Origin: Escherichia coli
GTDB taxonomy: Bacteria > Pseudomonadota > Gammaproteobacteria > Enterobacterales > Enterobacteriaceae
Assembly: GCF_003334335.1 (NCBI RefSeq)
Contig: NZ_QOWQ01000018.1
DNA: 64,000 nucleotides
Direction: 5' to 3' (one strand)
In this document: in pieces, positions 20,162 to 64,000 of the stretch
Layout of the letters: each line of letters starts with the position of its first letter
Numbering within the stretch: position 1 is the stretch's first letter
The notes under the pieces: generated by a model
What the model was told of the DNA's origin: nothing
Seen by the model: only the letters and a program-made list of their open reading frames with translations
The model's database searches: none
Program-made: the position numbers and the translations under genes

Positions 20162-20166
20162 GTTAT

Positions 20167-22205: not shown

Positions 22206-22216
22206 CACAGCCTCAC

Positions 22217-22915: not shown

Positions 22916-22967
22916 GGCTATCATCTTCAAAAATCAGTAAACCGGTGAACCTGCCACCGGTTAAGCC

Positions 22968-23768
<801 letters not shown>

Positions 23769-23795
23769 TTAGTGACAAAGTGCATATGTCTTCTT

Positions 23796-23830
<35 letters not shown>

Positions 23831-23921
23831 AGTGCTCGCAAAATCGATAAATTGCGATTGCCCCCATAGACCCGATAAACTTGCGCATCGGGCAACTTAT
23901 ACTTGTCATGTATCCTTTCAA

Positions 23922-24677
23922 TTAACTCATCGACAGCAGTTGGTTGGCACGGCCTGCGTTATCATCGACGCTGCTGATCACCTTCATCTGCATTTCAAAA
24001 CGCCGCGCGCTGGCAATCATGTCGCTCATTGCCGCAACGGCATTGACGTTACTGCCTTCCAGAACCCCCGACATCACACGCAAGGTTGGATCTGCCTGCA
24101 GTACCGGCCCACGCGTGGCCTGGGTTTCTGCGCTTAAACGAAAAATGCCGTCGTCACCGCGCTGCACTTCGCTGCCCGTGGCTTTCACCAGTTTAAGACG
24201 CCCTACTGGCGCAACCGTATTTGCCGGATCGCCCGGATTGAGCGCCGAGATTGTGCCATCGGCAGCAATAGTGATTTCCGCCCCTTCCGGCACAGCAATT
24301 GGCCCAGCCTCGCCTATCACCGGATGCCCCTGAATTGTCAGTTGCCCGGTGGGATCAACCTGAATGCTGCCATTACGCGTATACCCTTCGCTGCCGTCAG
24401 CGGTCTGCACGGCCAGCCAGCCATCCTGCTGCAACGCGACGTCCAGCGGGCGCGAGGTGTAATCCATTTTGCCGGGCGTCATATCTGCGCCCGGCGTTGA
24501 CGCCGTGACCAACGTGCGCGTGGGCAGAGAAAGCCCTTCCACTGGCACCGCGCGTAAAGCATTCAACTGCGCGCGAAAACCGGGCGTTGAGGCATTGGCC
24601 AGATTACTGGCGGTTACCGCCTGTTGATTCAGTGTCTGGCTGGCTGCTCCCATCGCGGTATAAATTGCGTGATCCAT
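23922..24677 (-). CDS. flgF: Flagellar proximal rod protein
   Basis: 251 aa; rod-protein N-terminal motif; gene order. Confidence 0.94.
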   Translation of the reverse strand: MDHAIYTAMGAASQTLNQQAVTASNLANASTPGFRAQLNALRAVPVEGLSLPTRTLVTASTPGADMTPGKMDYTSRPLDVALQQDGWLAVQTADGSEGYTRNGSIQVDPTGQLTIQGHPVIGEAGPIAVPEGAEITIAADGTISALNPGDPANTVAPVGRLKLVKATGSEVQRGDDGIFRLSAETQATRGPVLQADPTLRVMSGVLEGSNVNAVAAMSDMIASARRFEMQMKVISSVDDNAGRANQLLSMS

Positions 24678-24696
24678 TGAGCTATCCCGTCAGCGA

Positions 24697-25905
24697 TTAG
24701 CGTAAGTTAACCAGCGTGTTGAGGATCTGGTCCTGGGTTTTGATGGTCTGGGCGTTAGACTGATAGTTACGCTGGGCAACGATCATATTGACCAGTTCTT
24801 TACTGAGATCGACGTTGGACGCTTCCAGCGCACCGTTGGTCAGGGTGCCAAAGTTTCCCGTCCCGGCTGTCCCCAACAGCGCCACGCCAGAAGATTGCGT
24901 CGCAGACCAGACGTTGTCGCCTTCGGATGCCAGACCTTCGTTGTTGGCAAAGTTCGCCAGTACAATCTGCCCCAGCAGTTGGGTTTGTTCGTTGGAATAG
25001 TTGCCGACAACCGTACCGTCATCATTGATTTGATAACTCACCAGATCGCCCGGTTTGTAGCCGTTCTGGGTGGTTGCCACAATATTGTTAGCGCCGGTAT
25101 TTTGCTGCATGGAGTTGAGGAAGCTCAGACTAAACGTGGCGGGTTCTGCACCGTTAATTGCGCCGGTTGCGATATTATTCGCCATCGCACCATCCACTAA
25201 TGTGCCATTAGCATTAAATTCCAGTGTTGTCGCTGTCTTCGCAATGCTGTTTGGATCACTGCTATCCTGGGTGTAGACCTGCCAGTTATTATCCCCGGTC
25301 TTCACAAAGTAGACGCTCATGTCATGAGCATTACCCTGACTGTCGAAAACAGTCACCGAACCTTTTTTGTTATAGCTATCCGCATTGCTGGCGCTGAATG
25401 GCGTAACAGTAGGAAGCGGATCACTGGAATTCAGGTTGATCTGCATCGATGCCGTGGTGGTAGTTTTCGCTGCCATCAGGGTATTCGGGATCGAAATATT
25501 GGTCGGATTCGCCCCTTGCTGAATAGTCGGCGGCGTACCGGTTGCCGGGTAACCCGTCAGCTGTAAACCTTGCATATTCACCAGGTTACGGTTTTCATCC
25601 AGCTTAAATTGTCCGTTACGGCTGTAGAACACCGAACCGTTGCTGTCTACCAGACGGAAAAAACCGTTCTGGCTGATAGCAACGTCCAGACCTCGCCCGG
25701 TGTTGGTGGTCGTGCCATCGGTAAAGTCCTGAGTGATACCGGCAACTTTTACCCCCAGTCCCACTTTCGAACCGGCAAACATATCGGCAAAAGAGGCCGT
25801 GCCTGATTTAAAGCCGTAGGTGGCGGAGTTGGCGATATTGTTGCCAATAACATCGAGGTTGGTGGCGGCAGCGTTTAATCCGCTAACCGCTTGAGAAAAG
25901 GCCAT
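24697..25905 (-). CDS. flgE: Flagellar hook protein
   Basis: 402 aa MAFSQAVSGLNAAATNLDVIGNNIANSATYGFK...; matches FlgE. Confidence 0.95.
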   Translation of the reverse strand: MAFSQAVSGLNAAATNLDVIGNNIANSATYGFKSGTASFADMFAGSKVGLGVKVAGITQDFTDGTTTNTGRGLDVAISQNGFFRLVDSNGSVFYSRNGQFKLDENRNLVNMQGLQLTGYPATGTPPTIQQGANPTNISIPNTLMAAKTTTTASMQINLNSSDPLPTVTPFSASNADSYNKKGSVTVFDSQGNAHDMSVYFVKTGDNNWQVYTQDSSDPNSIAKTATTLEFNANGTLVDGAMANNIATGAINGAEPATFSLSFLNSMQQNTGANNIVATTQNGYKPGDLVSYQINDDGTVVGNYSNEQTQLLGQIVLANFANNEGLASEGDNVWSATQSSGVALLGTAGTGNFGTLTNGALEASNVDLSKELVNMIVAQRNYQSNAQTIKTQDQILNTLVNLR

Positions 25906-25929
25906 GACTGACTCCTGAAATGTGAAGGC

Positions 25930-40003: not shown

Positions 40004-40579
40004 ATGAAAAAAAGCCTGCTTGGTTTAACCTTCGCGTCCCTGATGTTCTCTGCCGGTTCAGCGGTTGCCGCCGATTACAAAATTGACAAAGAAGGTCAGC
40101 ACGCCTTTGTTAATTTCCGCATCCAGCACCTTGGCTATAGCTGGTTATACGGCACCTTTAAAGATTTCGACGGTACTTTTACCTTTGACGAAAAAAATCC
40201 GGCTGCCGATAAAGTGAATGTGACAATTAACACCACCAGCGTCGATACTAATCACGCCGAACGCGATAAACATCTTCGCAGTGCAGATTTCCTCAATACC
40301 GCAAAATATCCACAGGCAACATTCACCTCCACCAGCGTGAAGAAAGACGGTGACGAACTGGATATTACCGGCGATCTGACGCTGAATGGCGTAACCAAAC
40401 CCGTCACGCTGGAAGCGAAATTAATTGGTCAGGGCGACGACCCATGGGGTGGTAAACGTGCAGGCTTCGAGGCCGAAGGCAAAATTAAGCTCAAGGACTT
40501 CAATATCAAGACAGATTTAGGTCCAGCTTCTCAGGAAGTGGATCTGATTATTTCAGTGGAAGGCGTACAGCAGAAGTAA
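40004..40579 (+). CDS. yceI: Periplasmic polyisoprenoid-binding protein YceI
   Basis: 191 aa with signal peptide; 4-nt after yceJ. Confidence 0.92.
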
Positions 40580-40591
40580 GCGTGAAATGTT

Positions 40592-40612
40592 GCCGGATGG
40601 CACGCATCCGGC
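40592..40612. terminator. REP-like hairpin / bidirectional terminator between convergent yceI and yceA
   Basis: gccggatg-gcacg-catccggc perfect stem-loop. Confidence 0.5.
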
Positions 40613-40620
40613 AATGATAT

Positions 40621-41673
40621 TTATTCTGTTGGATCAGGAATGCACAGTGTTGTATTCAGACGTCCACGAGACTTATTAAAGATCTTATTGCCATTTTCAC
40701 GTCCTGCCCGACGGCGTCGCTGTTCTTCTGGCGGTAACGCGCTTTCTTCGCAGCAAATCTCACTACAACAACCTTTGTATTTTTCCGCGCATACTGGACA
40801 CTGAATAAACAGCAGGTGGCAGCCATCATTTTTACAGTTGGTATGGCTGTCGCACGGCGCGCCGCACTGGTGGCAATGCGCGATAATCTCATCCGATATA
40901 CGTTCGCCCATCCGCTCGTCAAAAACAAAATTTTTGCCAATAAAACGCACCGGCAAGCCCTGCTCGCGCGCCTTACGGGCGTATTCAATAATTCCGCCCT
41001 CGATATGCCAGACTTTGTTGAATCCGTTATGTTTCATCCAGGCACTGGCCTTTTCACAACGAATGCCGCCGGTGCAGTACATGACGATTTTTTTATCTTT
41101 ATGTGCCTGCATCATCTCGACTGCTTTTGGCAGCTGCTCACGGAAGGTATCTGCCGGAATTTCGAGCGCGTTTTCAAAGTGCCCCACTTCATACTCATAG
41201 TGGTTACGCATGTCGATAAATAGTGCATCGGGATCGTCAAGCATGGCGTTCACTTCCGCCGCTTGCAGATACTCACCAACATTGCTGGCATCAAAGTGAG
41301 GATCGTCAATACCGTCGGCAACAATGCGATCGCGTACCTTCATGCGCAGTACCCAGAAGGATTTCCCGTCATCATCCAACGCGATATTCAGGCGTAAACC
41401 CTCTAAAGCCGGGTCGAAGGCATAGAGCTGCGCGCGAAATGTTTCAACATTGCTCGCAGGTACGCTGATTTGCGCGTTAATGCCCTCATGCGCCAGATAC
41501 ACTCGCCCAAAAACATTCAGCGCGGTAAACAGCTGATATAAAGCGTCACGGGTCGCCTTAGGATCGGCGATGTGGAAATACTTGTAAAACGAAATGGTGG
41601 TTCGCGGTTCGCTCTCAGCCAACATTTTGGCTTTTAGCGCGTCGTTGGAAATGCGGTTGTGTAACACTGGCAT
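40621..41673 (-). CDS. trhO: Rhodanese-domain tRNA U34 hydroxylase TrhO (YceA)
   Basis: ORF 40621..41727; start at ATG 41673 ([32 protein letters not shown]..., 350 aa); Cys-rich C-terminus. Confidence 0.9.
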
Positions 41674-41897
41674 GGTGTACGGTTCCTGCGAGATGGGAAA
41701 GTAAAAATCCGCGGCATGATATAGCAATTATCGATAATTAACATCCACACATTTTACGCTACATTTGCGCATTAAAAATTATTTGTTATTTACAAGCGCG
41801 GCAATTTCGCCCAGTCTTCAGCCACAAATTTTGGTTGCGGGCGAAAAAATGCGACAATACATACAATTGCCCGAATAGGTTGAAAAACAGGATTGAT

Positions 41898-42818
41898 ATG
41901 ACGAATCTACCCAAGTTCTCCACCGCACTGCTTCATCCGCGTTATTGGTTAACCTGGTTGGGTATTGGCGTACTTTGGTTAGTCGTGCAATTGCCCTACC
42001 CGGTTATCTACCGCCTCGGTTGTGGATTAGGAAAACTGGCGTTACGTTTTATGAAACGACGCGCAAAAATTGTGCATCGCAACCTGGAACTGTGCTTCCC
42101 GGAAATGAGCGAACAAGAACGCCGTAAAATGGTGGTGAAGAATTTCGAATCCGTTGGCATGGGCCTGATGGAAACCGGCATGGCGTGGTTCTGGCCGGAC
42201 CGCCGAATCGCCCGCTGGACGGAAGTGATCGGCATGGAACACATTCGTGACGTGCAGGCGCAAAAACGCGGCATCCTGTTAGTTGGCATCCATTTTCTGA
42301 CACTGGAGCTGGGTGCGCGGCAGTTTGGTATGCAGGAACCGGGTATTGGCGTTTATCGCCCGAACGATAATCCACTGATTGACTGGCTACAAACCTGGGG
42401 CCGTTTGCGCTCAAATAAATCGATGCTCGACCGCAAAGATTTAAAAGGCATGATTAAAGCCCTGAAAAAAGGCGAAGTGGTCTGGTACGCACCGGATCAT
42501 GATTACGGCCCGCGCTCAAGCGTTTTCGTCCCGTTGTTTGCCGTTGAGCAGGCTGCGACCACGACCGGAACCTGGATGCTGGCACGGATGTCCGGCGCAT
42601 GTCTGGTGCCCTTCGTTCCACGCCGTAAGCCAGATGGCAAAGGGTATCAATTGATTATGCTGCCGCCAGAGTGTTCTCCGCCACTGGATGATGCCGAAAC
42701 TACCGCCGCGTGGATGAACAAAGTGGTCGAAAAATGCATCATGATGGCACCAGAGCAGTATATGTGGTTACACCGTCGCTTTAAAACACGCCCGGAAGGC
42801 GTTCCTTCACGCTATTAA
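41898..42818 (+). CDS. lpxL: Lipid A biosynthesis lauroyltransferase (HtrB)
   Basis: ORF 41835..42818; start at ATG 41898 ([24 protein letters not shown]..., 306 aa). Confidence 0.94.
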
Positions 42819-42825
42819 ATCTCCC

Positions 42826-42856
42826 ATGCCGGATGCTTCAGAATGGCATCCGGCAT
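42826..42856. terminator. REP-like hairpin / terminator after lpxL
   Basis: atgccggatgc-ttcagaatg-gcatccggcat stem-loop 8 nt after the lpxL stop. Confidence 0.5.
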
Positions 42857-42989
42857 TACCACAGCAAATCCCCCTGATTTAGCGATAAAAGCTCTCTGGA
42901 TTGCGCCCCCTGGAAGTCGGGCGCATAATTAGTGTGCTTATCTTTTCTTCTTATGTTCACCGCGCCTGGCGCACCAACAGCGGATTGCT

Positions 42990-44216
42990 ATGTCACCCTG
43001 TGAAAATGACACCCCTATAAACTGGAAACGAAACCTGATCGTCGCCTGGCTAGGCTGTTTTCTTACCGGTGCCGCCTTCAGTCTGGTAATGCCCTTCTTA
43101 CCCCTCTACGTTGAGCAGCTTGGCGTTACCGGTCACTCCGCCCTGAATATGTGGTCCGGTATTGTCTTCAGCATTACATTTTTATTTTCGGCCATCGCCT
43201 CACCGTTTTGGGGTGGACTCGCCGACCGTAAAGGCCGAAAACTCATGCTATTACGCTCTGCCCTCGGCATGGGCATCGTGATGGTGTTGATGGGGCTGGC
43301 ACAAAATATCTGGCAGTTTTTGATCCTGCGGGCGCTTCTTGGGTTACTTGGCGGATTTGTCCCCAACGCTAATGCTCTTATCGCCACACAAGTACCGCGT
43401 AATAAAAGCGGCTGGGCGCTGGGTACGCTCTCCACAGGCGGCGTTAGTGGTGCGTTGCTCGGCCCAATGGCTGGCGGCCTGCTCGCCGATAGCTACGGCT
43501 TACGTCCGGTATTCTTTATTACCGCCAGTGTGCTCATACTCTGCTTTTTCGTCACCCTGTTTTGCATCAGAGAAAAATTCCAGCCGGTCAGCAAAAAAGA
43601 GATGCTGCACATGCGGGAAGTGGTGACATCACTTAAAAACCCGAAACTGGTACTCAGCCTGTTTGTCACTACGTTAATCATCCAGGTGGCGACGGGCTCA
43701 ATTGCCCCCATTCTGACGCTGTATGTCCGCGAACTGGCGGGTAACGTCAGTAACGTCGCCTTTATCAGTGGCATGATCGCCTCGGTGCCAGGCGTGGCGG
43801 CTCTGCTAAGTGCACCACGACTCGGCAAACTTGGCGATCGAATCGGACCCGAAAAGATCCTGATTACAGCGCTGATCTTTTCTGTACTGCTGTTGATCCC
43901 AATGTCTTACGTTCAGACGCCATTGCAACTTGGGATTTTACGTTTTTTGCTCGGTGCCGCCGATGGTGCACTACTCCCCGCCGTACAGACACTGTTGGTT
44001 TACAACTCGAGCAACCAGATCGCCGGGCGTATCTTCAGCTATAACCAATCGTTTCGTGATATTGGCAACGTTACCGGACCATTGATGGGAGCAGCGATTT
44101 CAGCGAACTACGGTTTCAGAGCGGTATTTCTCGTCACCGCTGGCGTAGTGTTATTCAACGCAGTCTATTCATGGAACAGTCTACGTCGTCGTCGAATACC
44201 CCAGGTATCGAACTGA
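42990..44216 (+). CDS. mdtG: MFS multidrug efflux transporter
   Basis: 408 aa [30 protein letters not shown]...; matches MdtG. Confidence 0.94.
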
Positions 44217-44298
44217 TTTTTCGCCTTTCATACTTGCAAAAGCGGAGAATCAGCTATCCTTTTCCCTGAAACCTCATCAACTCAAAGGGAGAATCGTG

Positions 44299-44673
44299 AT
44301 GACCATGTACGCAACGCTTGAAGAAGCCATTGACGCTGCACGCGAAGAATTTCTTGCAGACAACCCCGGCATCGACGCCGAAGATGCGAATGTGCAACAG
44401 TTCAATGCCCAAAAATACGTTTTGCAGGACGGCGACATCATGTGGCAAGTTGAGTTTTTTGCCGACGAAGGGGAAGAAGGTGAATGTTTACCTATGCTTA
44501 GCGGTGAAGCCGCGCAAAGTGTTTTTGATGGCGACTATGATGAGATAGAGATACGCCAGGAGTGGCAGGAAGAGAATACATTACATGAATGGGACGAGGG
44601 GGAATTTCAGCTTGAGCCACCGCTGGATACCGAGGAAGGACGCGCAGCAGCTGATGAGTGGGATGAACGTTAA
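44299..44673 (+). CDS. msyB: Acidic protein MsyB
   Basis: ORF begins at GTG 44296 but ATG at 44299 gives MTMYATLEEAIDAAREEFLADNPG... (124 aa), highly acidic. Confidence 0.93.
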   Translation: MTMYATLEEAIDAAREEFLADNPGIDAEDANVQQFNAQKYVLQDGDIMWQVEFFADEGEEGECLPMLSGEAAQSVFDGDYDEIEIRQEWQEENTLHEWDEGEFQLEPPLDTEEGRAAADEWDER

Positions 44674-44901
44674 TCACTCATACGGGCCATGATGAATGTC
44701 GATCGGCAGCAGTAAAGTATCAAAAACCAGAGAGAATGGCAGATCAAGGATCGTGACATAACGCCAGGCGGAGTCACGCACATCCCATTGCACACCGGGA
44801 TAATATTGGTTGCCATGCCCCTGCCCCGGTATAGTGCGACTAATAATGCTGCCACAGCCACTCAGCAAGGTCACCATGATGCTCACCACAATTAAACGCA
44901 T
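44674..44901 (-). CDS. yceK: Lipoprotein YceK
   Basis: 75 aa MRLIVVSIMVTLLSGC lipobox; matches YceK. Confidence 0.9.
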   Translation of the reverse strand: MRLIVVSIMVTLLSGCGSIISRTIPGQGHGNQYYPGVQWDVRDSAWRYVTILDLPFSLVFDTLLLPIDIHHGPYE

Positions 44902-44916
44902 TTGATACCTCTTTCG

Positions 44917-44949
44917 TAAAAAAATACCGGCATAACGCCGGTATTTTTA
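44917..44949. terminator. Bidirectional rho-independent terminator (distal end of opgGH operon)
   Basis: A-run, hairpin ataccggc-ataac-gccggtat, T-run; reads as a terminator on either strand. Confidence 0.6.
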
Positions 44950-44964
44950 TTGGCTCGTTGTTTT

Positions 44965-45066
44965 TGCCGGATGCGGCGTGAACGCCTTATCCGACCCACA
45001 AAGTCTTGCAAAATCAATAAATTGCAGGAACGATGTAGGCCTGATAAGCGTAGCGCATCAGGCAAC
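44965..45066. repeat. BIME: two REP palindromic units
   Basis: tgccggatgcggcgtgaacgccttatccgacccaca and gtaggcctgataagcgtagcgcatcaggcaac, immediately downstream of the opgH stop. Confidence 0.8.
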
Positions 45067-45073
45067 TACGTTT

Positions 45074-49256
<4,183 letters not shown>

Positions 49257-49538
49257 TCAGCACGCTGGCTCATGGATTAAGCACCTGATTGCAACCGTTT
49301 TCACTTTCCGTGCTTCTCCTAAAGACAGAAGCATCGACTTCGTGTAGGGTTTGCCAGCAAATTTATTTATCAACCGTCTTACAGACGCTTCCATTCTGGT
49401 TAGTGGTAGCGATGATGCTATGCATAAAAACCTTGAAGCCTGCGCCTGGCGCGGTCAGGTCGGTGTCACTATGGCAACAAGCCTAAAGGCATAACCCGAC
49501 AGGGATAAGACGAAAAATCCGAGATTAGTTAACCATAT

Positions 49539-50696
49539 ATGAACCCAGTACCCGCGCAACGTGAATATTTCCTCGACTCCATCCGCGCCTGGCTGATGTT
49601 GTTAGGGATACCTTTTCATATTTCTTTAATCTATTCGAGCCATACATGGCATGTGAATAGCGCCGAATCATCATTGTGGCTGACCCTTTTTAATGACTTC
49701 ATCCACTCGTTCCGCATGCAGGTATTTTTCGTTATATCCGGCTACTTTTCCTACATGCTTTTTTTACGCTATCCCTTGAAAAAATGGTGGAAAGTACGTG
49801 TCGAACGTGTAGGTATCCCGATGTTAACAGCCATCCCCCTACTGACATTACCGCAATTTATTATGCTGCAATATGTCAAAGGAAAAGCGGAAAGTTGGCC
49901 TGGGCTGTCATTGTATGACAAATATAATACGTTGGCCTGGGAATTAATATCACACCTGTGGTTTTTACTGGTGTTAGTGGTCATGACGACGCTGTGCGTA
50001 TGGATATTTAAGCGCATCAGAAATAATTTAGAAAATTCTGATAAAACGAATAAAAAATTCTCGATGGTAAAACTATCGGTGATTTTTTTATGCCTCGGCA
50101 TCGGTTATGCGGTAATAAGAAGAACGATTTTTATTGTGTATCCGCCCATTCTGAGTAATGGCATGTTCAATTTTATTGTCATGCAAACGCTGTTTTATTT
50201 GCCGTTCTTTATCCTCGGCGCACTGGCTTTCATTTTCCCTCATCTTAAAGCCTTGTTTACCACGCCGTCTCGTGGCTGTACCCTTGCAGCAGCATTGGCG
50301 TTTGTCGCTTATTTACTCAACCAGCGCTATGGCAGTGGCGATGCCTGGATGTACGAAACCGAGTCGGTGATCACCATGGTCCTCGGTCTGTGGATGGTGA
50401 ATGTGGTCTTCTCCTTTGGCCACCGTTTGCTTAACTTCCAGTCAGCGCGGGTGACTTATTTTGTTAACGCATCGCTGTTTATCTATCTGGTTCACCACCC
50501 GTTAACGCTGTTTTTCGGCGCATACATTACACCGCACATCACCTCCAACTGGCTTGGTTTTCTCTGTGGCCTGATATTTGTAGTAGGGATTGCGATAATT
50601 CTGTATGAAATTCATTTGCGCATCCCGTTACTGAAGTTTTTGTTCTCTGGTAAACCGGTTGTTAAGCGTGAGAACGATAAAGCACCAGCCCGTTAA
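49539..50696 (+). CDS. opgC: OPG succinyltransferase (MdoC), membrane acyltransferase
   Basis: 385 aa polytopic acyltransferase-3 family; divergent from opgG. Confidence 0.92.
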
Positions 50697-50703
50697 GCCA
50701 CAT

Positions 50704-52134
50704 TTACAATAACCATTCCACGGGCAATATCGACGCCAGTCTGACCATAACCCGCTTCCAGAAACTGGTGGCGGGTTCTTTTTTGAGAATAATCTCTTTC
50801 TTTGCATGACGATCAACCCAGTTGATCCGTCCCCACCTGTCCAGACGGAGCTGCCAGGCCGCATCATACTGGCTCTGAATAAAGCGTTTATCAATTAACT
50901 GTGCCAGCGTTTCGCTCTCTATCACGAAGCCCATTTCAGTATTGAGCAATGTTGAACGCGGATCGAAATTGAAAGAGCCGATAAACACCGTTTTACCATC
51001 GATGCTAAAGGTTTTAGCATGCAGGCTGGCTCCGGAATTACCGGTTATGCCGCGATCGTGTAACGTACTACTTTGTTCACGCGTCGGCTTGAGTTCATAT
51101 AATTCCACGCCATAGCGGAGCAATTTTTTGCGCCAGCGCGCGTATCCGGCATGGACGACAGCAACATCGTTAGCGGCAAGAGAATTGGTTAGGATCGCAA
51201 TCTTTACCCCTTTTCTCACCATCCGTAAGAGTTGCGCCACACCTGCGCGTGTCGGTACAAAATAGGAAGAGATAATATCGATGCGTTCACTGGGTGAGCC
51301 CATGATATCGAACAGGCGCTGCGGTAACAGTGAATGCCGTTTTGCCTTGCCCTCCCCTTTCGCCGGATCATCACTTAATAAACGTGTCTTCGCCCAGATA
51401 AGCGGCAATGTTCCATCAACCAGATGATTTATAAATGGACTGGATTCCATTTTGCGTAAATAACGATGCGTCATGGCATCGTTATGCCAGGAGGCGGGTA
51501 ACTCGATGCGATCCGCCATTTCACCCTCCGGGACATCCAGCACCTGCTGTAAGGGTGAAACCGATTTGCAATACCAGTAGCGGGCGAAATCATCGGCAAC
51601 GTCCTCTACCACGGGTCCTATTGCCATGACATCTAAATCCGAAAAAAGTGGCTCCTCCCCTGCTCCAAAATAGGCATCACCAATATTTCGTCCTCCCACC
51701 AGGGTCACCACGCCATCGACAGTGAAACTTTTATTGTGCATACGGCGATTAAGACGGGAAAAGTCGGTGATATAACCAAGCGGACGCAGCAAGCGAAACG
51801 AGAAAGGATTAAAAAGCCGGACTTCAATGCGTGGATGACTGTCAAGCAAGCGTAAAATGTCGTCAAGTCCGGGCGTATTGTTGTCGTCCAGCAACAAACG
51901 GACGCGAACGCCACGCTTTGCTGCGGCTAACAGGGCGGAAAACAGTAACCGACCCGACATATCGTCCTGCCAGATGTAATACTGAACATCGAGCGTATGC
52001 TCTGCCATTTCGGCCAGACGATACCGGGCGGCAAACGCATCCAGACTTTTCTCCAGAGGAAAAAGGCCACACTGACCGGGATGTTGCGAACACAGTGGCA
52101 GCACCGCGCTCGCCAGCCGGGGCAAATCATTCAT
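50704..52134 (-). CDS. clsC: Cardiolipin synthase C (YmdC), phospholipase D family
   Basis: ORF 50704..52194 with two HxK(x)4D motifs ([18 protein letters not shown]); start placed at ATG 52134, overlapping ymdB stop. Exact start uncertain. Confidence 0.88.
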
Positions 52135-52660
52135 CTCCTTGTTGGGTAAGGAGTCTTTCGTAGAGGTGGGCGTTTTCTTCATCATAACAGACAAAGTATA
52201 CCTGTTCGGGTAAAGCGTGACGGGTAATAAATTCTGAAACGGTTTTTACTGCGATTTCAGCCGCTGCCGCACGAGGGTAACCATAAACCCCAGTACTGAT
52301 TGCAGGAAAAGCCACTGACGTATAGCTGTTTGCCGCCACCAGTCGTAGGCTATTGAGATAGGCATCCTGCAAAAGCTGGTCTTCGTTTTGTTCACCACCA
52401 CGCCAGACTGGCCCGACGGTGTGCACTACGGCTTTAGCGGGAAGATCGCCTGCAAGCGTAATAACGGCATGCCCCGTAGGGCAATCGCCCTGCTGTTGCC
52501 TGACTTTTAAACAAGCATCCAGCAGGGCCGGACCCGCTGCGCGATGAATGGCCCCATCGACGCCGCCGCCTCCCATTAATGACGGATTAGCCGCATTCAC
52601 AATCACATCAACGGCCAGTTTGGTAATATCACCCTGCACAACATGAATACGCGTTTTCAT
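52127..52660 (-). CDS. ymdB: Macrodomain O-acetyl-ADP-ribose deacetylase
   Basis: 177 aa [43 protein letters not shown], macro domain. Confidence 0.95.
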
Positions 52661-52754
52661 AACGCCTCCTTACACCTTCTTGTTTCTTAAGTGTACAGCA
52701 GGCTTTTTGGTTAAATCGCATTTTTCTGCTCAGCAACGTGAGTTGTTCAGAAAC

Positions 52755-53519
<765 letters not shown>

Positions 53520-53577
53520 ATTCTTCTCCCGAAAAAAAACAGGGCTTGCGCCCTGTTTCTGTAATACAAATGATGTA

Positions 53578-54033
53578 TTAGTACTGATGAGCGGTCGCGT
53601 TGTTACCAAAGCCAACCTGAGTCACGTTGACGGAGGAGTTAGATGCAGTCTGGTCAACTGCAGCACCGTTGCCACCACCGAACTGTTTAACCGTCATTTC
53701 AGAATTTTTGCCGTTCCACTGATCAAGAGTAGCGCTGTTACCGAAGCCACGTTGGGTCAGATCGATTGAGCTGTCATCTGAGCCCTGACCAACATCTGCA
53801 CCATTACCGCCGCCATGCTGGGTAATAGTCAAGTCAGAGTTACGGGCATCAGTTTGCAGAGCAAGTGCAGAGTTACCGCCACCGTACTGGTAAATGTTCA
53901 GCTCAGAATTTGGGCCGCTATTATTACCGCCACCACCGTGGTTACCGCCGCCGCCGTACTGAGGAACAACACCTGCCAGAGCGCTACCGGAGAATACGAT
54001 TGCTGCAATTGCTGCTACTTTTAAAAGTTTCAT
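53578..54033 (-). CDS. csgA: Major curlin subunit
   Basis: 151 aa with signal peptide and Q/N/G-rich imperfect repeats; matches CsgA. Confidence 0.97.
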   Translation of the reverse strand: MKLLKVAAIAAIVFSGSALAGVVPQYGGGGNHGGGGNNSGPNSELNIYQYGGGNSALALQTDARNSDLTITQHGGGNGADVGQGSDDSSIDLTQRGFGNSATLDQWNGKNSEMTVKQFGGGNGAAVDQTASNSSVNVTQVGFGNNATAHQY

Positions 54034-54073
54034 GTAAAACCCCCATCGGATTGATTTAAAAGTCGAATGGAAA

Positions 54074-54529
54074 TTAACGTTGTGTCACGCGAATAGCCAT
54101 TTGCGACTGTCTCTGCACTACAATTGCCGTTTTTTGAGTACCATACTGTGTAATATTTGCTTTATTACCAGAACCTTTCTGGATAATCATCGCAGTATTA
54201 CCATAAGCACCTTGCGAAATACTGGCATCGTTGGCACTGCCCGCCTGATCAATATATGCAAGGTTATAATCTCCTGTCTGGTCAATCTTTGCCCGGTTGC
54301 TACTACCTTCTTGCGCAACAACCGCCAAAAGTTTTGAGCCTCCCTGCCGTAACTGAGCACTATTATTAGTCCCAGCTTGACCAATTATGGCTGCCTGATT
54401 AAATGAAGACTTACTCAATTCATTTACCGCGAAGTTATATTCTGAATTAGCTAAATCATAACCTGCTGCGGCTGCAATCCCAGGCGCACCCAGTATTGTT
54501 AACATCATAAATAACAATTTGTTTTTCAT
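54074..54529 (-). CDS. csgB: Minor curlin / nucleator
   Basis: ORF 54074..54556; start at ATG 54529 (MKNKLLFMMLTILGAPGIAAA..., 151 aa). Confidence 0.95.
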   Translation of the reverse strand: MKNKLLFMMLTILGAPGIAAAAGYDLANSEYNFAVNELSKSSFNQAAIIGQAGTNNSAQLRQGGSKLLAVVAQEGSSNRAKIDQTGDYNLAYIDQAGSANDASISQGAYGNTAMIIQKGSGNKANITQYGTQKTAIVVQRQSQMAIRVTQR

Positions 54530-55283
54530 GTTGTCACCCTGGACCTGGTCGTACATTTAAGAAATTAAATCATTTCAACTTGGTTGTTAACGCAACCTGT
54601 ATTTTGTTAACGCTGCGTTACGATGGAAAGTATGTCTGCGGAAATATTTTTAATAACTCACCCGCGCGTTGTATTTTTCTTTTTTAGTTCATACCAAAGT
54701 ATTAAAACCCACGTAAATACGCTGTTATCTACGCAAAAAAATATTTTGTTTTCTTTTAAATCTCCGTTTTCCGCTATCAAAAAGCACCAGACAGTCATTC
54801 TTCTTGCCCGTCGCTGATTGCTGCGATATGTCTTGCGCACAAGCCGTGACAAACCTCGTCTTTTTGCAGTAAAAAATTGTCCACGGAGGTGTGGAGAAAA
54901 AACAAGAACGTTTTACATGACGAAAGGACTACACCGAAATATTTTTTATATGCATTATTAGTAAGTTATCACCATTTGTATGATTTTTTAAAATTGTGCA
55001 ATAAAAACCAAATGTACAACTTTTCTATCATTTCTAAACTTAATAAAACCTTAAGGTTAACATTTTAATATAACGAGTTACATTTAGTTACATGTTTAAC
55101 ACTTGATTTAAGATTTGTAATGGCTAGATTGAAATCAGATGTAATCCATTAGTTTTATATTTTACCCATTTAGGGCTGATTTATTACTACACACAGCAGT
55201 GCAACATCTGTCAGTACTTCTGGTGCTTCTATTTTAGAGGCAGCTGTCAGGTGTGCGATCAATAAAAAAAGCGGGGTTTCATC
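54530..55283. promoter_or_regulatory. csgBAC / csgDEFG divergent intergenic control region
   Basis: 754-bp AT-rich non-coding interval between divergent csgB and csgD; in K-12 it holds both promoters, multiple regulator binding sites and the sRNA-targeted csgD leader. Sites not mapped here. Confidence 0.7.
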
Positions 55284-55934
<651 letters not shown>

Positions 55935-55938
55935 AGCC

Positions 55939-56328
55939 ATGAAACGTTATTTACGCTGGATTGTGGCGGCAGAATTTCTGTTCGCCGCAGGGAATCTTCA
56001 CGCCGTTGAGGTAGAAGTCCCGGGATTGCTAACTGACCATACTGTTTCATCTATTGGCCATGATTTTTACCGAGCCTTTAGTGATAAATGGGAAAGTGAC
56101 TATACGGGTAACTTAACGATTAATGAAAGGCCCAGTGCACGATGGGGAAGCTGGATCACTATAACGGTCAATCAGGACGTTATTTTCCAGACTTTTTTAT
56201 TTCCGTTGAAAAGAGACTTCGAGAAAACTGTCGTCTTTGCACTGATTCAAACTGAAGAAGCACTAAATCGTCGCCAGATAAATCAGGCGTTATTAAGTAC
56301 GGGCGATTTGGCGCATGATGAATTCTAA
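55939..56328 (+). CDS. csgE: Curli secretion specificity factor
   Basis: 129 aa with signal peptide; matches CsgE. Confidence 0.95.
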
Positions 56329-56352
56329 ATAAAAAATTGTTCGGAGGCTGCA

Positions 56353-56769
56353 ATGCGTGTCAAACATGCAGTAGTTCTACTCATGCTTATTTCGCCATTA
56401 AGTTGGGCTGGAACCATGACTTTCCAGTTCCGTAATCCAAACTTTGGTGGTAACCCAAATAATGGCGCTTTTTTATTAAATAGCGCTCAGGCCCAAAACT
56501 CTTATAAAGATCCGAGCTATAACGATGACTTTGGTATTGAAACACCCTCAGCGTTAGATAACTTTACTCAGGCCATCCAGTCACAAATTTTAGGTGGGCT
56601 ACTGTCGAATATTAATACCGGTAAACCGGGCCGCATGGTGACCAACGATTATATTGTCGATATTGCCAACCGCGATGGTCAATTGCAGTTGAACGTGACA
56701 GATCGTAAAACCGGACAAACCTCGACCATCCAGGTTTCGGGTTTACAAAATAACTCAACCGATTTTTAA
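56353..56769 (+). CDS. csgF: Curli assembly component
   Basis: 138 aa [33 protein letters not shown]...; matches CsgF. Confidence 0.95.
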
Positions 56770-56795
56770 GCCCCAGCTTCATAAGGAAAATAATC

Positions 56796-57629
56796 ATGCA
56801 GCGCTTATTTCTTTTGGTTGCCGTCATGTTACTGAGCGGATGCTTAACCGCCCCGCCTAAAGAAGCCGCCAGACCGACATTAATGCCTCGTGCTCAGAGC
56901 TACAAAGATTTGACCCATCTGCCAGCGCCGACGGGTAAAATCTTTGTTTCGGTATACAACATTCAGGACGAAACCGGGCAATTTAAACCCTACCCGGCAA
57001 GTAACTTCTCCACTGCTGTTCCGCAAAGCGCCACGGCAATGCTGGTCACGGCACTGAAAGATTCTCGCTGGTTTATACCGCTGGAGCGCCAGGGCTTACA
57101 AAACCTGCTTAACGAGCGCAAGATTATTCGTGCGGCACAAGAAAACGGCACGGTTGCCATTAATAACCGAATCCCGCTGCAATCTTTAACGGCGGCAAAT
57201 ATCATGGTTGAAGGTTCGATTATCGGTTATGAAAGCAACGTCAAATCTGGCGGGGTTGGGGCAAGATATTTTGGCATCGGTGCCGACACGCAATACCAGC
57301 TCGATCAGATTGCCGTGAACCTGCGCGTCGTCAATGTGAGTACCGGCGAGATCCTTTCTTCGGTGAACACCAGTAAGACGATACTTTCCTATGAAGTTCA
57401 GGCCGGGGTTTTCCGCTTTATTGACTACCAGCGCTTGCTTGAAGGGGAAGTGGGTTACACCTCGAACGAACCTGTTATGCTGTGCCTGATGTCGGCTATC
57501 GAAACAGGGGTCATTTTCCTGATTAATGATGGTATCGACCGTGGTCTGTGGGATTTGCAAAATAAAGCAGAACGGCAGAATGACATTCTGGTGAAATACC
57601 GCCATATGTCGGTTCCACCGGAATCCTGA
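56796..57629 (+). CDS. csgG: Curli secretion channel lipoprotein
   Basis: 277 aa MQRLFLLVAVMLLSGC lipobox; matches CsgG. Confidence 0.96.
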   Translation: MQRLFLLVAVMLLSGCLTAPPKEAARPTLMPRAQSYKDLTHLPAPTGKIFVSVYNIQDETGQFKPYPASNFSTAVPQSATAMLVTALKDSRWFIPLERQGLQNLLNERKIIRAAQENGTVAINNRIPLQSLTAANIMVEGSIIGYESNVKSGGVGARYFGIGADTQYQLDQIAVNLRVVNVSTGEILSSVNTSKTILSYEVQAGVFRFIDYQRLLEGEVGYTSNEPVMLCLMSAIETGVIFLINDGIDRGLWDLQNKAERQNDILVKYRHMSVPPES

Positions 57630-57644
57630 CAGATAAAAAAGCCG

Positions 57645-57717
57645 GAATTATCATCCGGCATTTTACTGTTTAAGCGAAAGCGTGAGTGCCCCTCACGCTT
57701 TATTTTTGATTTCCTGC
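57645..57717. terminator. Two hairpins forming convergent terminators for csgG (+) and ycdZ (-)
   Basis: A-run + gccgga...tccggc + T-run (57645..57674) and agcgtgag-tgcccc-tcacgct + T-run (57689..57717). Confidence 0.6.
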
Positions 57718-58184
57718 TCACGGTGCGCCGTCTTTGCACTACGCGCCGCCAGCCACAGGCCACTGTTTTTCATTGCGTAACCAAATATCAGCCCAAGCGC
57801 CAGCGAAGGTAACACCAGTTTCCAGTCACCCTGCCCGGCAAACGTCGCGCATGCGCCTATAAACGTCCCCGGAACAAATGAAAGCAGCAGCTGTTTGGCC
57901 TGAATACACATCAGAAACGCGACAATACCGGTTATGACATAACCGAGAATTTCCAGATGTGGTGCCAGTGCACTACCGTAAATAATGACCATCGCCCACA
58001 CCACGCCACTAAGCAGGGTTGCAGCGGAGATCGCCAGCCCTTTCAGCCCACCTTGCGGGCAGGCAAAGTAGGCCGTACAGCCCAGGAAGCCCGCCCAGCT
58101 TAGTAAGCCCAGGGAAACAGCCACCCATCCCCAGATACCGGAGAGAATGCCTGTTGTGATTGCAATAGAGAGAAGTATGTTCAT
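57693..58184 (-). CDS. ycdZ: Inner-membrane protein YcdZ (DUF1097)
   Basis: ORF 57693..58232; start at ATG 58184 (MNILLSIAITTGILSGIWGW..., 163 aa). Confidence 0.88.
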   Translation of the reverse strand: MNILLSIAITTGILSGIWGWVAVSLGLLSWAGFLGCTAYFACPQGGLKGLAISAATLLSGVVWAMVIIYGSALAPHLEILGYVITGIVAFLMCIQAKQLLLSFVPGTFIGACATFAGQGDWKLVLPSLALGLIFGYAMKNSGLWLAARSAKTAHREQEIKNKA

Positions 58185-58285
58185 GCCGCGCATGATAGCA
58201 GAAAACGCGGCCATGAATGAGATCGAGCACACATTTTATGCAACAACAAATTATCCGTTGCAGTTATGAGTGACGTAGATCACAC

Positions 58286-58840
58286 TTATTCTTCAGAATC
58301 TTCTTCCAGCTCGTCCCACATTGCACTAATGGCATCGCGGGTTAGCGGTGCCATGGTGCGCCAGAAAGGCGTGGTTGCATGGGCCTCCACTTTGCCAAGG
58401 AACGCACCACACCAGGGTAACAGATACTCACTGAACAGTGTTTCCAGTGCTTCGCTCTCATCTTCCGTTGACTGATCTTCCAGCCAGGAAGCTGCGAGCA
58501 GCAATGTGCCGATGTGATCGGCTGGCGTATCCGCTAATGGCATCCCTCGCTCAGAAAGAAAAGCGCGCACTTCCGCTTCCGTCGCGCCCTCAACCCATGC
58601 GCTACGATATGGCGGCACAGCACATTCATCGCCGATAAACAACGCATTGTAATCGGCAGAGACTTGCGTCATATCACAGCTTTTCTGCAAACGTGTCAGC
58701 AACTCATCCTGCTCCAGTGGCCAGTTCGCAGCCAGTTTCCCCTCACGAATCAGGGTAAACAGCGGCACCAGTAAAGGATCTTGTGGTTGGCGGTAATAGA
58801 GCGAACCCAGCACACGACAGAGGATAGAAAACTCGTTCAT
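58286..58840 (-). CDS. ycdY: TorD-family chaperone YcdY
   Basis: 184 aa MNEFSILCRVLGSLYYRQPQDPLLVPLF...; matches YcdY. Confidence 0.92.
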   Translation of the reverse strand: MNEFSILCRVLGSLYYRQPQDPLLVPLFTLIREGKLAANWPLEQDELLTRLQKSCDMTQVSADYNALFIGDECAVPPYRSAWVEGATEAEVRAFLSERGMPLADTPADHIGTLLLAASWLEDQSTEDESEALETLFSEYLLPWCGAFLGKVEAHATTPFWRTMAPLTRDAISAMWDELEEDSEE

Positions 58841-58863
58841 TAATATATTTCCATTACTAGTAA

Positions 58864-59601
58864 TTAAAGGTCTGCAAATTCCGCAATCGGTGCCATACCG
58901 CGAGATTCAAGGAAGTTCAGTAAGCGGCGCGGAGAAACATTCAAAATGCGCTCTGGCGGAAAATCTACCGCGTCGAGGATTTTAAGACACTCTTCAAATT
59001 CCCCCATGGTAAACGCGGTGTGAGAATCCGAGCCTAATGCCACCCAACCTCCAGCATCACGTACCGCTGCGGCTACCTCACGACAGTTGTCTTCACTGCC
59101 CTTACGTGAGTGTAAAAATGAGGAATTATTGATTTCCAGCGCCACCTGATGTTTCGCGGCTGCTTCAGCAACGGCTTTCACATCTATTTCATATTTGGGA
59201 TTTCCGGGATGGCTTATTATATGCACATTGCCGCTGGCGATAGTGGCGATCATCGCTTGTGTATTGGTCGCTTTGTCATGTGGCGCAAAAACCGGCTCAT
59301 GAAAACCGGCAATAATTAGATCCAGCGAGTCAAACATTTTACCGCTGCAGTCAATTTCACCATCAACATTTTTAATGTTAGCTTCGATGCCGCGCAGGAT
59401 CCCTACCCCATCAACCACTCGCGGCCAGATACGCATGTTAATGAAGTGCCAGTGATGCGGCGCATCTTCCATATCCGGGCCATGATCGGTGATCGCAAAA
59501 AGTTTAATGCCCTTTTGTTTGGCCTGGGCAATGTAATCACTTAATGTGCTATATGCATGTGTGCTGGCAACGGTATGCATATGAAGGTCGACGGGATACA
59601 T
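58864..59601 (-). CDS. ycdX: PHP-domain zinc phosphatase YcdX
   Basis: 245 aa [23 protein letters not shown]..., PHP metal-binding His motif. Confidence 0.94.
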
Positions 59602-59655
59602 AACTCTCTCCTGTATTCAATTCCCGCCAAGGATAGCAGGAATCCTGATGCTTTA

Positions 59656-60633
<978 letters not shown>

Positions 60634-60817
60634 TTATCATTATGATCTACAAAGGCCACCAGCATAACAAATCCGTGGTCGGTGGCAAAAAAAGCAGATT
60701 TCGCTTATTAAAACCACACATTGATTGAAGTTTGAATAAACGCGCGATTTTTTCAAAAAGTTTGTTGACCTCAGGTCATGATTTCCCTAAATTAGCGCCC
60801 GTTCCAGCAAGACAGGA

Positions 60818-60905
60818 ACGACAATTTGGTGAGGTGTCCGAGTGGCTGAAGGAGCACGCCTGGAAAGTGTGTATACGGCAACGTATCGGGGGTTCGAATC
60901 CCCCC
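60818..60905 (+). tRNA. serX: tRNA-Ser (anticodon GGA)
   Basis: 88 nt GGTGAGGTGTCCGAGTGGCTGAAGGAGCACGCCTGGAAAGTG...GGTTCGAATCCCCCCCTCACCGCCA: D-arm GAGTGG, anticodon loop CCTGGAAAG, long variable arm, T-arm GGTTCGAATCC, encoded CCA. Confidence 0.95.
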
Positions 60906-60911
60906 CTCACC

Positions 60912-60945
60912 GCCAGATTACAAGCGCATGTTATTGTTTAACATG
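60912..60945 (+). terminator. Rho-independent terminator of serX
   Basis: Hairpin aagcgcatgtt-attgttt-aacatgcgctt followed by a T-run, 7 nt after the tRNA 3' end. Confidence 0.8.
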
Positions 60946-61064
60946 CGCTTTTTTATTTATCCTTCCAGACAGTATGCCACCGGGTATGCCATCTGAAACC
61001 GGTTTGTATGAGCCGCGATCACATCTTATCGGACAATTTCCGATCTTTAAGCATACTGGCAAAG

Positions 61065-61910
61065 CTATACTGACAGCATGTCAGGATAGTGTTCTGCAAT
61101 AATATCATTCAGTCGCTCAACCAGTTCCGGTTTTCTGAACGTGATATACGCGGAGCCCTTCTTAAAGTATCTGATACTGAACATCTCATCTTCATAGTCC
61201 TCTTTCCCCTGAACAGACTGGATGTGCTCATCCAGATGAATGGTGATGTTTTCCCGATTGTCGGGGATCGGTTTGCCGCTGAACAGGTGCAGCATTCTTT
61301 CCAGGTCGGTAAGTCGATCTGCCTGTTGCCCGCTGTTCAGATGAAATCCCCACCGGTCCCACCTCACCAGATTGTTGACGATAATTTTACTGCCAAATTT
61401 ACAGGGTGAGTTGGTTTTGTAATTCCAGCTCAGCACTCTGAAGACGTTGATCACTCCTCGCTCAAACACGTCATCCTTATTCTGGTGCAGTTGCTCAAAT
61501 GTGCTCCAAATGTTCGCTTCACTGATTTCCGGAAAGTTATCGTACTCCAGTGAGCGGTACCATGTATCACGGGCCTGCGCATCCATTAATGACAGCATCC
61601 CGGAACGTTGCATCAGGCCACGCCAGATTTCGCGATCGAGATTGCGGGTGATGGCTTTCATTGCGGTTTCCGGTTTCTCCATGAGCCAGCAGCCGCAGCG
61701 AAAATCCTGTTTCATGGCCCAGTCCCGGGCGGTTTTACCGCCAATGCTTTCCGTCAGTACCGAGATTTCAGCCAGTTGCCGGATAAGTGTGTCGATTTGC
61801 AGCAGCGCACTCTTTCGTACAGCCAGAATGTGGCGGATACTGGTTGAGCAGATAACGTCCGTATGTCCGTTGACCAGTTCCGGGCGGGAGATTGTGATAT
61901 CTGACATCAT
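61065..61910 (-). CDS. Uncharacterised 281-aa island protein (possibly DUF4942-like)
   Basis: Intact ORF MMSDITISRPELVNGHTDV... with Shine-Dalgarno aaggaaaaacg before the ATG; no recognisable catalytic motif; family assignment from memory of island annotations, not searched. Confidence 0.6.
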   Translation of the reverse strand: MMSDITISRPELVNGHTDVICSTSIRHILAVRKSALLQIDTLIRQLAEISVLTESIGGKTARDWAMKQDFRCGCWLMEKPETAMKAITRNLDREIWRGLMQRSGMLSLMDAQARDTWYRSLEYDNFPEISEANIWSTFEQLHQNKDDVFERGVINVFRVLSWNYKTNSPCKFGSKIIVNNLVRWDRWGFHLNSGQQADRLTDLERMLHLFSGKPIPDNRENITIHLDEHIQSVQGKEDYEDEMFSIRYFKKGSAYITFRKPELVERLNDIIAEHYPDMLSV

Positions 61911-61991
61911 CGTTTTTCCTTTTGGTTTATAAACGAAAACGCCAGCCGTATTCAGGCTGGCGTCAGTGGAATGAAGTCTGGTGAGTAAGAC

Positions 61992-62189
61992 TCACCTGTT
62001 CTGTTGCAGAAGCTGCTGTTGGCGCAGGGTACGGATATCTTCCCTGGCCTGTTCAATGCAGGGCAGCAGTGCTGCTGAATCCGTTTTATCCTCATCGTTG
62101 TCGAAGATAATCCCTGATTCGCAGTCAATATTGTCCTGCAGCCACGCAATCAGAATATCCAGCGCCGTTTCTGTGGTTAATGATTTCAT
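61992..62189 (-). CDS. Small 65-aa island protein (possibly DUF957-like)
   Basis: ORF MKSLTTETALDILIAWLQDNIDCESGIIFDNDEDKTDSAALLPCIEQAREDIRTLRQQQLLQQNR, 16 nt downstream of the YeeW-like stop; acidic, helical; unsearched. Confidence 0.45.
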   Translation of the reverse strand: MKSLTTETALDILIAWLQDNIDCESGIIFDNDEDKTDSAALLPCIEQAREDIRTLRQQQLLQQNR

Positions 62190-62205
62190 GTTGTGAATTT
62201 ACGGG

Positions 62206-62694
62206 TTACCAGTCGAAAGTGGGGAACCCCGGCAGACATTCTGCGCCGGCGTCCAGATGAATGAGACTGACGCCATAACGCCGGGTGAGAGTGACGACCA
62301 GACGACGGAACGTTCTTGACAGGCCCAGGCGTTTAAGCCGCAGAACCGGGTACGACCATGCATCGGTACGTAACAGATAGCCGCTGCCTGTAAAATGAAT
62401 CCATTCTGTTTCGCCGTCGTCATTAGTCTGGTGTGACAGCGAGTACAGCCAGGCGTTGTCCGTTTCCGTGATATGTGCGGTACTGCAACGTATGCCGGTA
62501 AGGGTTGTTAACGGTGGTGGTGTACTGGTTGACTGCTGGTCGGATTTATCGACCACGCGGAGTGAATAACCGTTTTCAGAGACCTTGTTAATCAGTTCAG
62601 CGAGATTAACACCATCGACGTCAACGACAATGCGCCCCATGTTCAGCGCCTGCATGTTAATGCTGTCGGCTTCCGGCGTCAGGGAAAGGTTCAT
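62206..62694 (-). CDS. YeeW-like protein (DUF5983-type), full length
   Basis: 162-aa [57 protein letters not shown]...; its ATG overlaps the CbtA stop as ATGA; position matches yeeW downstream of cbtA. Confidence 0.6.
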
Positions 62695-63074
62695 TGTTTC
62701 GCCTCCTCCGGATGCTTGCCCAGGGTAATGTTATTTACCATTCTGTAATTGTCCCGGGTCATCAGGCCGGTCGCCCTGCGAGCCCGGAGAATATCAATGC
62801 TGTTGATTAACTGAGACGACGGGGCTCCTGCGCTGAATCCCGGCTGGTCAGTTCGTACCAGCACGTATTTTTCAACGAGAAAGTTCACCGCGTCACACAG
62901 TGAAATCCCTGCCTCAATATGCTGCTCAATCACACGTTCATCAGCGAACGGTGTGTCATTCAACGTAAGGCCATAGTGCTGGTCCAGCAGTCGGGTGAGC
63001 AGTGTCTGCCAGATTTCAACCGGAGACGGGCAGCGCGATGCCGCCCGTACGTGTGTGTCGGGTAATGTTTTCAT
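62691..63074 (-). CDS. cbtA: CbtA-family toxin of a type IV toxin-antitoxin system (YeeV/YkfI/YpjF-like)
   Basis: Start at ATG 63074 gives 127 aa [70 protein letters not shown]..., near-identical to remembered YeeV-family toxins. Confidence 0.9.
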
Positions 63075-63154
63075 ACTGAAGATTTTCCTGATATGCAGAT
63101 ATAAGAAATGGAAAAGTGGCGTGGCTGGTGAAAGCACCAGGCCGGAGCAGAAGG

Positions 63155-63535
63155 CTATTCCGGAGGGTTACTTTCCGTTTCGGTCGCAGGATAAACAGCC
63201 AGATAAACGTAACCACAGGAGCCGAGGGTGTCGGCATCGCAGGTCAGCCCTTTCGCATACAGCGTGACGGTATGCTGATGCCGGGGATTCAGTTCACCGC
63301 TGGTGAGCATGAGTTCCAGTTGTTTCATCAGCAGTGGAAAAGCCTGGTCCAGATGGTATGCATCCGCATTGCTGAACCGGCCTCTGATACCGGCGCGGTC
63401 TGCAAGGTAATGCAACCGGTTACCCTCCTGCACCAGACGTGCCCCGAAACAGGGCGTCACGGTGCAGGGCAGCCCCCACCAGGGGCGGTCTTTGTTGTCG
63501 TCGGGAAGCGTTGTCCCGGGGAGTGTGTCTGACAC
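63155..63535 (-). CDS. cbeA: CbeA-family antitoxin of a type IV toxin-antitoxin system (YeeU/YafW/YfjZ-like)
   Basis: Probable GTG start at 63535 gives [54 protein letters not shown]... matching the remembered YeeU N-terminus ([13 protein letters not shown]...). Confidence 0.88.
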
Positions 63536-63545
63536 GATAAAATCC

Positions 63546-63923
63546 TCACAGAAAATCGGTGAATGATAGTTTAACGATGACGGGGCAGCCGGCGCGCAGA
63601 CCGGCTTCGGTGAAGGTATATTCGTTGATGAGAAGGGCCTCATCCACAGCGGCGTCTGAGGTCAGCCAGTCGTACTCGTTTTCCAGTTGACGGTACAACC
63701 AGAAGGCCAGGTCGCGCAGGGCTTCGCTGACTGCGGCTTCCGCATCGGTTGTCATAGCCTGACCAGTCGGACTGTTCCGGGTGACGGTGATATCCATGCA
63801 GTACGGATGGCAGTAACGTCCCCGGTGGTGGATTTCAGCCTGCAGTTGCCAGAAGTTACGCTTCTGCACCGCCTGCAGGGCATCCGCGATACGATGAAGC
63901 TCACGGTCCTGCGGGGCATACAC
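63546..63923 (-). CDS. Hypothetical protein upstream of cbeA (yeeT/ykfH position); start uncertain
   Basis: 125-codon ORF opening with GTG at 63923 (an in-frame stop lies 9 nt upstream); internal ATGs would give 83- or 68-aa products; stop is 8 nt before the cbeA start. Sequence not recognised. Confidence 0.4.
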   Translation of the reverse strand: MYAPQDRELHRIADALQAVQKRNFWQLQAEIHHRGRYCHPYCMDITVTRNSPTGQAMTTDAEAAVSEALRDLAFWLYRQLENEYDWLTSDAAVDEALLINEYTFTEAGLRAGCPVIVKLSFTDFL

Positions 63924-64000
63924 CCATAAGCGCTAACTTAAGGGTTGAACCATCTGAAGAATGCGACGCCTCGGTGCCTCGTTAAGACGATGCCTCGCGT

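Follow-up and report, generated by a model that had tools for sequence, protein, structure and literature searches.

The csgB-csgD intergenic region of a natural, K-12-like Escherichia coli isolate is identical to the K-12 curli control region

Introduction

Does the long, AT-rich interval between csgB and csgD in this Escherichia coli isolate contain sequence changes that could alter curli expression, or is it the control region already known from K-12? The K-12 csgD-csgB spacer comprises 754 bases with an AT content of 65.5% and is the fifth largest between divergent operons (PMC5745457). It is bound by at least 12 proteins and 5 small RNAs (sRNAs) (PMC5745457; PMC4152358; PMC3535384; PMC12388358; PMC12713406) and is matched by few parts of the E. 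coli chromosome in density of regulation. Single-base changes in the spacer can turn curli and biofilm formation on or off, which makes a comparison between strains worthwhile. The assumption in the original prediction that strain differences at this locus change the biofilm phenotype is well founded: A change in the -10 hexamer of the csgD promoter leads to constitutive curli in O157:H7 (PMC7232329).

We analyzed the spacer within a 64-kb stretch of E. coli DNA, hereafter referred to as the window, to which all coordinates refer. The original prediction had proposed an alignment to K-12 in search of point changes in regulator sites and sRNA pairing regions, and had held that identity to K-12 would make the interval unremarkable. 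This alignment revealed zero differences. By the prediction's own measure, the spacer allele is thus already known and unremarkable.

Results

Position and composition of the spacer

The spacer fills the entire gap between two start codons, as read from the list of open reading frames (ORFs) and the sequence (Table 1). The csgB ATG is located at 54527..54529 on the minus strand, in an ORF with its 5' end at 54529, the product of which begins with MKNKLLFMMLTILGAPGIAAAAG, and the csgD ATG begins at 55284 on the plus strand. Both genes are divergently oriented around the spacer, and this layout is likewise annotated in K-12 records. Over its whole length, the spacer is identical to that of K-12 MG1655 (754 of 754 bases; NC_000913.3, 1103197..1103950, reverse strand). 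With csgB(AC) and csgD(EFG) diverging from a K-12 sequence, our data support the predicted 754-bp divergent control region and curli regulatory hub.

The spacer was also said to be the longest non-coding interval in the window and to be strongly AT-rich, and both descriptions are accurate. When the RefSeq annotation of NC_000913.3 is mapped onto the K-12-matching part of the window, the 754-bp spacer is the longest gap between annotated features, followed by gaps of 393 bp (opgC-opgG) and 294 bp (ycfH-ptsG); ORFs are densely packed in the non-K-12 tail of the window. The G+C content of the spacer is 34.48%, compared to 50.8% for all 64 kb, and no stretch of the window is more AT-rich: A scan of the 64 kb showed that only 0.7% of all 754-bp segments are as GC-poor as the spacer, that the lowest value (33.2%) belongs to the segment starting at 54494, and that the next separate low-GC region has 38.9% G+C. 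Length and AT content agree with the published K-12 values, and the low G+C content has been put down to intrinsic curvature and nucleoid-protein binding (PMC12713406; PMC5745457).

Table 1. Features in and around the csgB-csgD spacer, in window coordinates. Bracketed positions are relative to the csgD P1 transcription start unless stated otherwise.
Feature	Position	Strand	Basis and remarks
csgB coding sequence, left flank, first gene of csgBAC	54074..54529	-	ORF; annotated in K-12 as curli minor subunit CsgB; DNA identical to MG1655
csgB-csgD intergenic control region	54530..55283		754 bp, 34.5% G+C, 100% identical to K-12 MG1655
IS1 insertion sites in five other genomes (L005, L011, L012, L013 and L014, in this order)	54764-54774, 54785-54794, 54829-54837, 54989-54996, 55190-55199		window-equivalent positions
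Initial RcdA footprint, predicted	54828..54944 (-308..-192)		coordinate transfer, PMC3535384
H-NS binding region, predicted	54935..55163 (-201..+28)		coordinate transfer, PMC3535384
MlrA palindrome AAAGTTGTACA(12N)TGCACAATTTT	54990..55023 (-146..-113)	-	published site (PMC3509220)
Direct repeat GTTACATTTAGTTACATGTT, taken as activating OmpR site D1	55077..55096 (centre about -50)	+	read from sequence
RcsB footprint, predicted	55105..55188 (-31..+53)		coordinate transfer, PMC12388358
csgD P1 -10 hexamer TAGATT	55125..55130 (about -11..-6)	+	sequence; wild type, sigma-S-dependent form
csgD 5' untranslated leader, 148 nt	55136..55283 (start +/-1 nt)	+	PMC4152358; PMC12388358
Rfam RF02752 (ES056 sRNA)	55137..55228	+	119.7 bits, gathering score 43; model positions 1-92 of 92
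Stem-loop SL1	55201..55256 (-83..-28 from AUG)	+	PMC4152358
Predicted OmrA/OmrB pairing site, 5' half of SL1	55204..55224 (-80..-60 from AUG)	+	RNAduplex
Stem-loop SL2, including Shine-Dalgarno region and AUG	55274..55299 (-10..+16)	+	PMC4152358, coordinate transfer
csgD coding sequence, right flank, first gene of csgDEFG	55284..55934	+	ORF; K-12 annotation; DNA identical to MG1655

The csgD promoter and its regulator sites

Two independent sources concur in placing the start of transcription from csgD promoter P1 at 55136 (+/-1 nt): The csgD leader is 148 nt long (PMC4152358), and a cloned fragment with a primer ending at window-equivalent 55202 is numbered -335..+67 (PMC12388358). While this literature numbering gives 55136 (C), the Rfam model ES056 and the canonical -12..-7 spacing of the -10 hexamer favour 55137 (A). 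The mutation underlying constitutive curli in O157:H7, AATCT to ATTCT on the opposite (csgB-sense) strand, corresponds to a single A-to-T change that converts TAGATT into TAGAAT (PMC7232329). This change is absent from the window, where position 55129 is T and the hexamer reads TAGATT. A scan for sigma-70 promoter and terminator consensus sequences returned two promoter-like matches, compared to 4.0 expected from shuffles, neither of which is the real csgD promoter. That this simple consensus scan misses P1 is to be expected of a weak sigma-S promoter.

Regulator footprints were transferred from K-12 coordinates with the P1 start set to 55136, and the identical sequence makes this transfer exact for the RcdA footprint. 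The region predicted to be bound by H-NS coincides with the local G+C minimum of the spacer (28% at 54850..55149). For the MlrA palindrome, we found one exact match in the window and none in 100 shuffles. As the spacer sequence equals that of K-12, the csgBAC promoter and the CsgD-binding box must, by the same transfer, be present at the csgB-proximal end. The activating OmpR site D1 is presumably the direct repeat listed in Table 1, as reportedly assigned by Prigent-Combaret et al. 2001. An activating D1 site has been located near -51 in Salmonella, with a homologous D1 in E. coli (PMC13304067; PMC10002515).

The csgD leader

The minimum-free-energy fold of 55136..55310 holds an SL1-like hairpin at about 55204..55254. 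SL1 is the target zone of the sRNAs OmrA/B, McaS, RprA, GcvB and RydC (PMC4152358). The small SL2 hairpin is not exactly reproduced in this fold of 55136..55310. We also paired the leader with the 5' end of OmrA by RNAduplex, using a sequence which we take to be that of the OmrA 5' end. The resulting duplex has a predicted energy of -25.9 kcal/mol, and none of 500 shuffled seeds performed as well. Its position agrees with that of the OmrA/B site in a published review (PMC4152358).

The Rfam match to ES056 begins at the start of csgD transcription and lies wholly within the leader, and therefore most plausibly represents the 5' part of the csgD mRNA and not a separate gene. Elsewhere in the window, matches above the gathering score were obtained for the rne 5' UTR element (13751..14087), SraB (11722..11890, minus strand), the PyrC leader (35822..35871) and ES036 (CssrF; 45000..45042), all of which are expected for a K-12-like region.

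Coding potential of the spacer

The spacer might hide an unannotated gene for a small protein or for an independent sRNA. It contains four mechanical ORFs of 47-64 amino acids, one of which, a 47-amino-acid ORF with a TTG start (54818..54961; NC_000913.3, 1103519..1103662), has no interruption in any of the six lineages compared, and an sRNA family in Rfam covers the first 92 nt of the csgD leader. We nevertheless consider such a hidden gene very unlikely. In other E. coli lineages, frameshifts or stop codons disrupt all but one of the four ORFs, and the remaining one has accumulated six amino-acid-changing versus two silent substitutions, with no sign of protein-level constraint; hidden protein genes were rejected on these grounds. 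Nothing is annotated inside the spacer in the RefSeq K-12 record (NC_000913.3), and what ES056 matches is the 5' end of the csgD mRNA.

Few of the mapped sites fall in the csgB-proximal half of the spacer (about 54575..54830); 26 of the 32 are no more than 200 bp away from the csgD start (PMC5745457). An undescribed function of this half, for example one exerted by the product of the 47-amino-acid TTG ORF, appears equally improbable. If real, it would apply to K-12 just as well and would not be specific to the window.

Comparison with K-12 and other lineages

Positions 1..60919 of the window align to NC_000913.3 (1158478..1097561, reverse strand) with 99.984% identity. In a base-by-base walk along this alignment, we found eight substitutions relative to MG1655 (window positions 684, 2301, 10735, 18408, 29157, 34385, 34641 and 60639) and, as the only indel in 60.9 kb, an extra T in a T-run at 37256 in the bssS-dinI spacer. 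There are no differences from NC_000913.3 between 37257 and 60638, a stretch that includes the csgB-csgD spacer and all seven csg genes, and the differences nearest to the spacer flank it at distances of about 17 kb (37256, left) and 5.3 kb (60639, right). The identity of the spacer is unsurprising, as nine differences in 60.9 kb predict only about 0.1 per 754 bp.

The source strain is a natural K-12-like isolate, not K-12 itself, as is evident from the different island that follows the tRNA-Ser(GGA) gene serX (60828..60915), in addition to the eight substitutions and the indel. The K-12 arrangement (ycdU/IS3 side) is abandoned directly after serX, and the end of the island contained in the window (60916..64000) encodes DUF4942, DUF5983 and CbtA/YeeU-type toxin-antitoxin proteins. 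Positions 40000..64000 are matched best over their full length by natural isolates of soil, poultry, pig, wastewater and human origin.

The spacer does vary in other lineages. When we aligned it to those of O104:H4, O157:H7, ST131, UTI89 and the urine isolate E09, we detected 39 variable columns spread across the interval, among them those of an A-run at 54735/54736 that varies in length by 1-2 bp. The window has the K-12 state at each of the variable columns. The sampled O157:H7 genome differs from the window at 9 of 754 positions (98.8% identity). E09, which originates from China, has a 10-bp deletion at -60..-51 (window-equivalent 55076..55085) that takes out part of the GTTACAT repeat taken as the activating OmpR site; this predicts a loss of csgD activation in E09. 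Given this variability, the curli effect of the single A-to-T change in O157:H7 and a source strain that is not K-12, one could have suspected that point changes peculiar to the strain, in regulator sites or where sRNAs pair, alter curli or biofilm behaviour. The alignment rejects such a variant: With 0 of 754 bases differing from MG1655, we give this reading practically no weight.

Insertions of IS1 in the spacer were seen in at least 10 of the listed records. In five unrelated complete genomes, IS1 occupies five different spacer positions (Table 1), one of which splits the MlrA palindrome, while another is located in the csgD leader at +54..+63. The spacer of the window itself contains no IS1.

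Distribution of the spacer among E. coli genomes

By megablast against 5426 complete E. coli genomes, the spacer was matched in 5372 (5,373 matching records), and at least 80% of it was found in one place in 5330 genomes. Identity was 97-100% in every sampled record with the full interval, and the spacer was located between csgB and csgD in all records examined. The allele of the window, 100% identical, is shared by C600, J53, BL21(DE3), E. coli C and ATCC 8739, as well as by many human, poultry, pig and water isolates. Of 60 rows sampled at even intervals from the megablast ranking, 13 had the exact allele, which corresponds to about one fifth of the matching records.

The spacer was not matched in 54 of the 5426 complete genomes, and H112 retains just its first 61 bases. 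Seventeen records matched at only 80-90%, and six matches were on plasmids. These missing, partial or plasmid-borne matches probably reflect csg deletions, divergent clades or partial copies.

The idea that the AT-rich spacer was acquired horizontally and is silenced by H-NS, and is not a native control region, could draw on a G+C content 16 points under the window mean and on the H-NS binding reported over -201..+28 (PMC3535384), but such a foreign origin was rejected as exceedingly improbable in view of the near-universal presence of the spacer and its position between csgB and csgD in all records examined, of a low G+C content already ascribed to DNA curvature and nucleoid proteins, and of the absence of mobile-element features from the window's spacer.

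Discussion

Our results leave little doubt that the spacer is an ordinary K-12-type control region of csgDEFG and csgBAC, which most likely works as described for K-12. Its position, composition and identity to K-12 are accompanied by an intact MlrA site, -10 hexamer, leader and OmrA pairing site. For the binding and regulatory steps, we infer from sequence identity that the K-12 model, drawn from experiments in K-12 (PMC12388358; PMC4152358; PMC3535384; PMC12713406; PMC5745457), applies to this strain.

According to this model, csgD P1, with its TAGATT hexamer and a start at about 55136, would be read mainly by sigma-S RNA polymerase and activated by MlrA at the -146..-113 palindrome, by OmpR at the repeat near -50 and by IHF. 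Its expression would respond to temperature and osmolarity. H-NS would coat the very AT-rich region from -201 to +28 and thereby silence or damp P1, with CpxR, RcsB (-31..+53), RstA and others as probable further dampers. The 148-nt leader of the resulting mRNA is expected to fold into SL1 and SL2, and the Hfq-dependent sRNAs OmrA/B, McaS, RprA, GcvB and RydC could pair with it and reduce CsgD synthesis. The CsgD protein would then switch on csgBAC from its promoter at the left spacer end.

With the commonest, K-12-type allele and all examined sites intact, nothing in this region leads us to expect an unusual biofilm phenotype. Since the cis region is identical to that of K-12, any curli difference between this strain and K-12 must arise in trans, for example in rpoS, mlrA, ompR or the genes for c-di-GMP enzymes. 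Strains with identical csgD promoters are indeed known to differ in curli through trans-acting defects (PMC6029578; PMC4287979), and sharing the cis region with K-12 is no guarantee of a K-12 curli phenotype.

Among known systems, K-12 MG1655 is the closest: Its spacer has the same length, AT content, bases, flanking genes and orientation, with no difference within the interval, and the eight substitutions and the 1-bp indel in the surrounding 60.9 kb all lie outside the csg locus. The constitutive O157:H7 alleles of ATCC 43895 and FB38 share the locus and promoter architecture, but read TAGAAT where the window reads TAGATT (PMC7232329). Rfam files ES056 as an sRNA family, whereas the whole 92-position model is matched here inside the csgD leader. 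In a comparison based on the literature, the csgD-csgB (agfD-agfB) region of Salmonella enterica shares the divergent operon layout, the OmpR D1, MlrA, IHF and H-NS inputs and leader control by sRNAs (PMC13304067). It differs from E. coli in the first approximately 54 nt of the leader, where homology is low, and in RcsB and H-NS, which act with opposite sign in the two species (PMC12388358).
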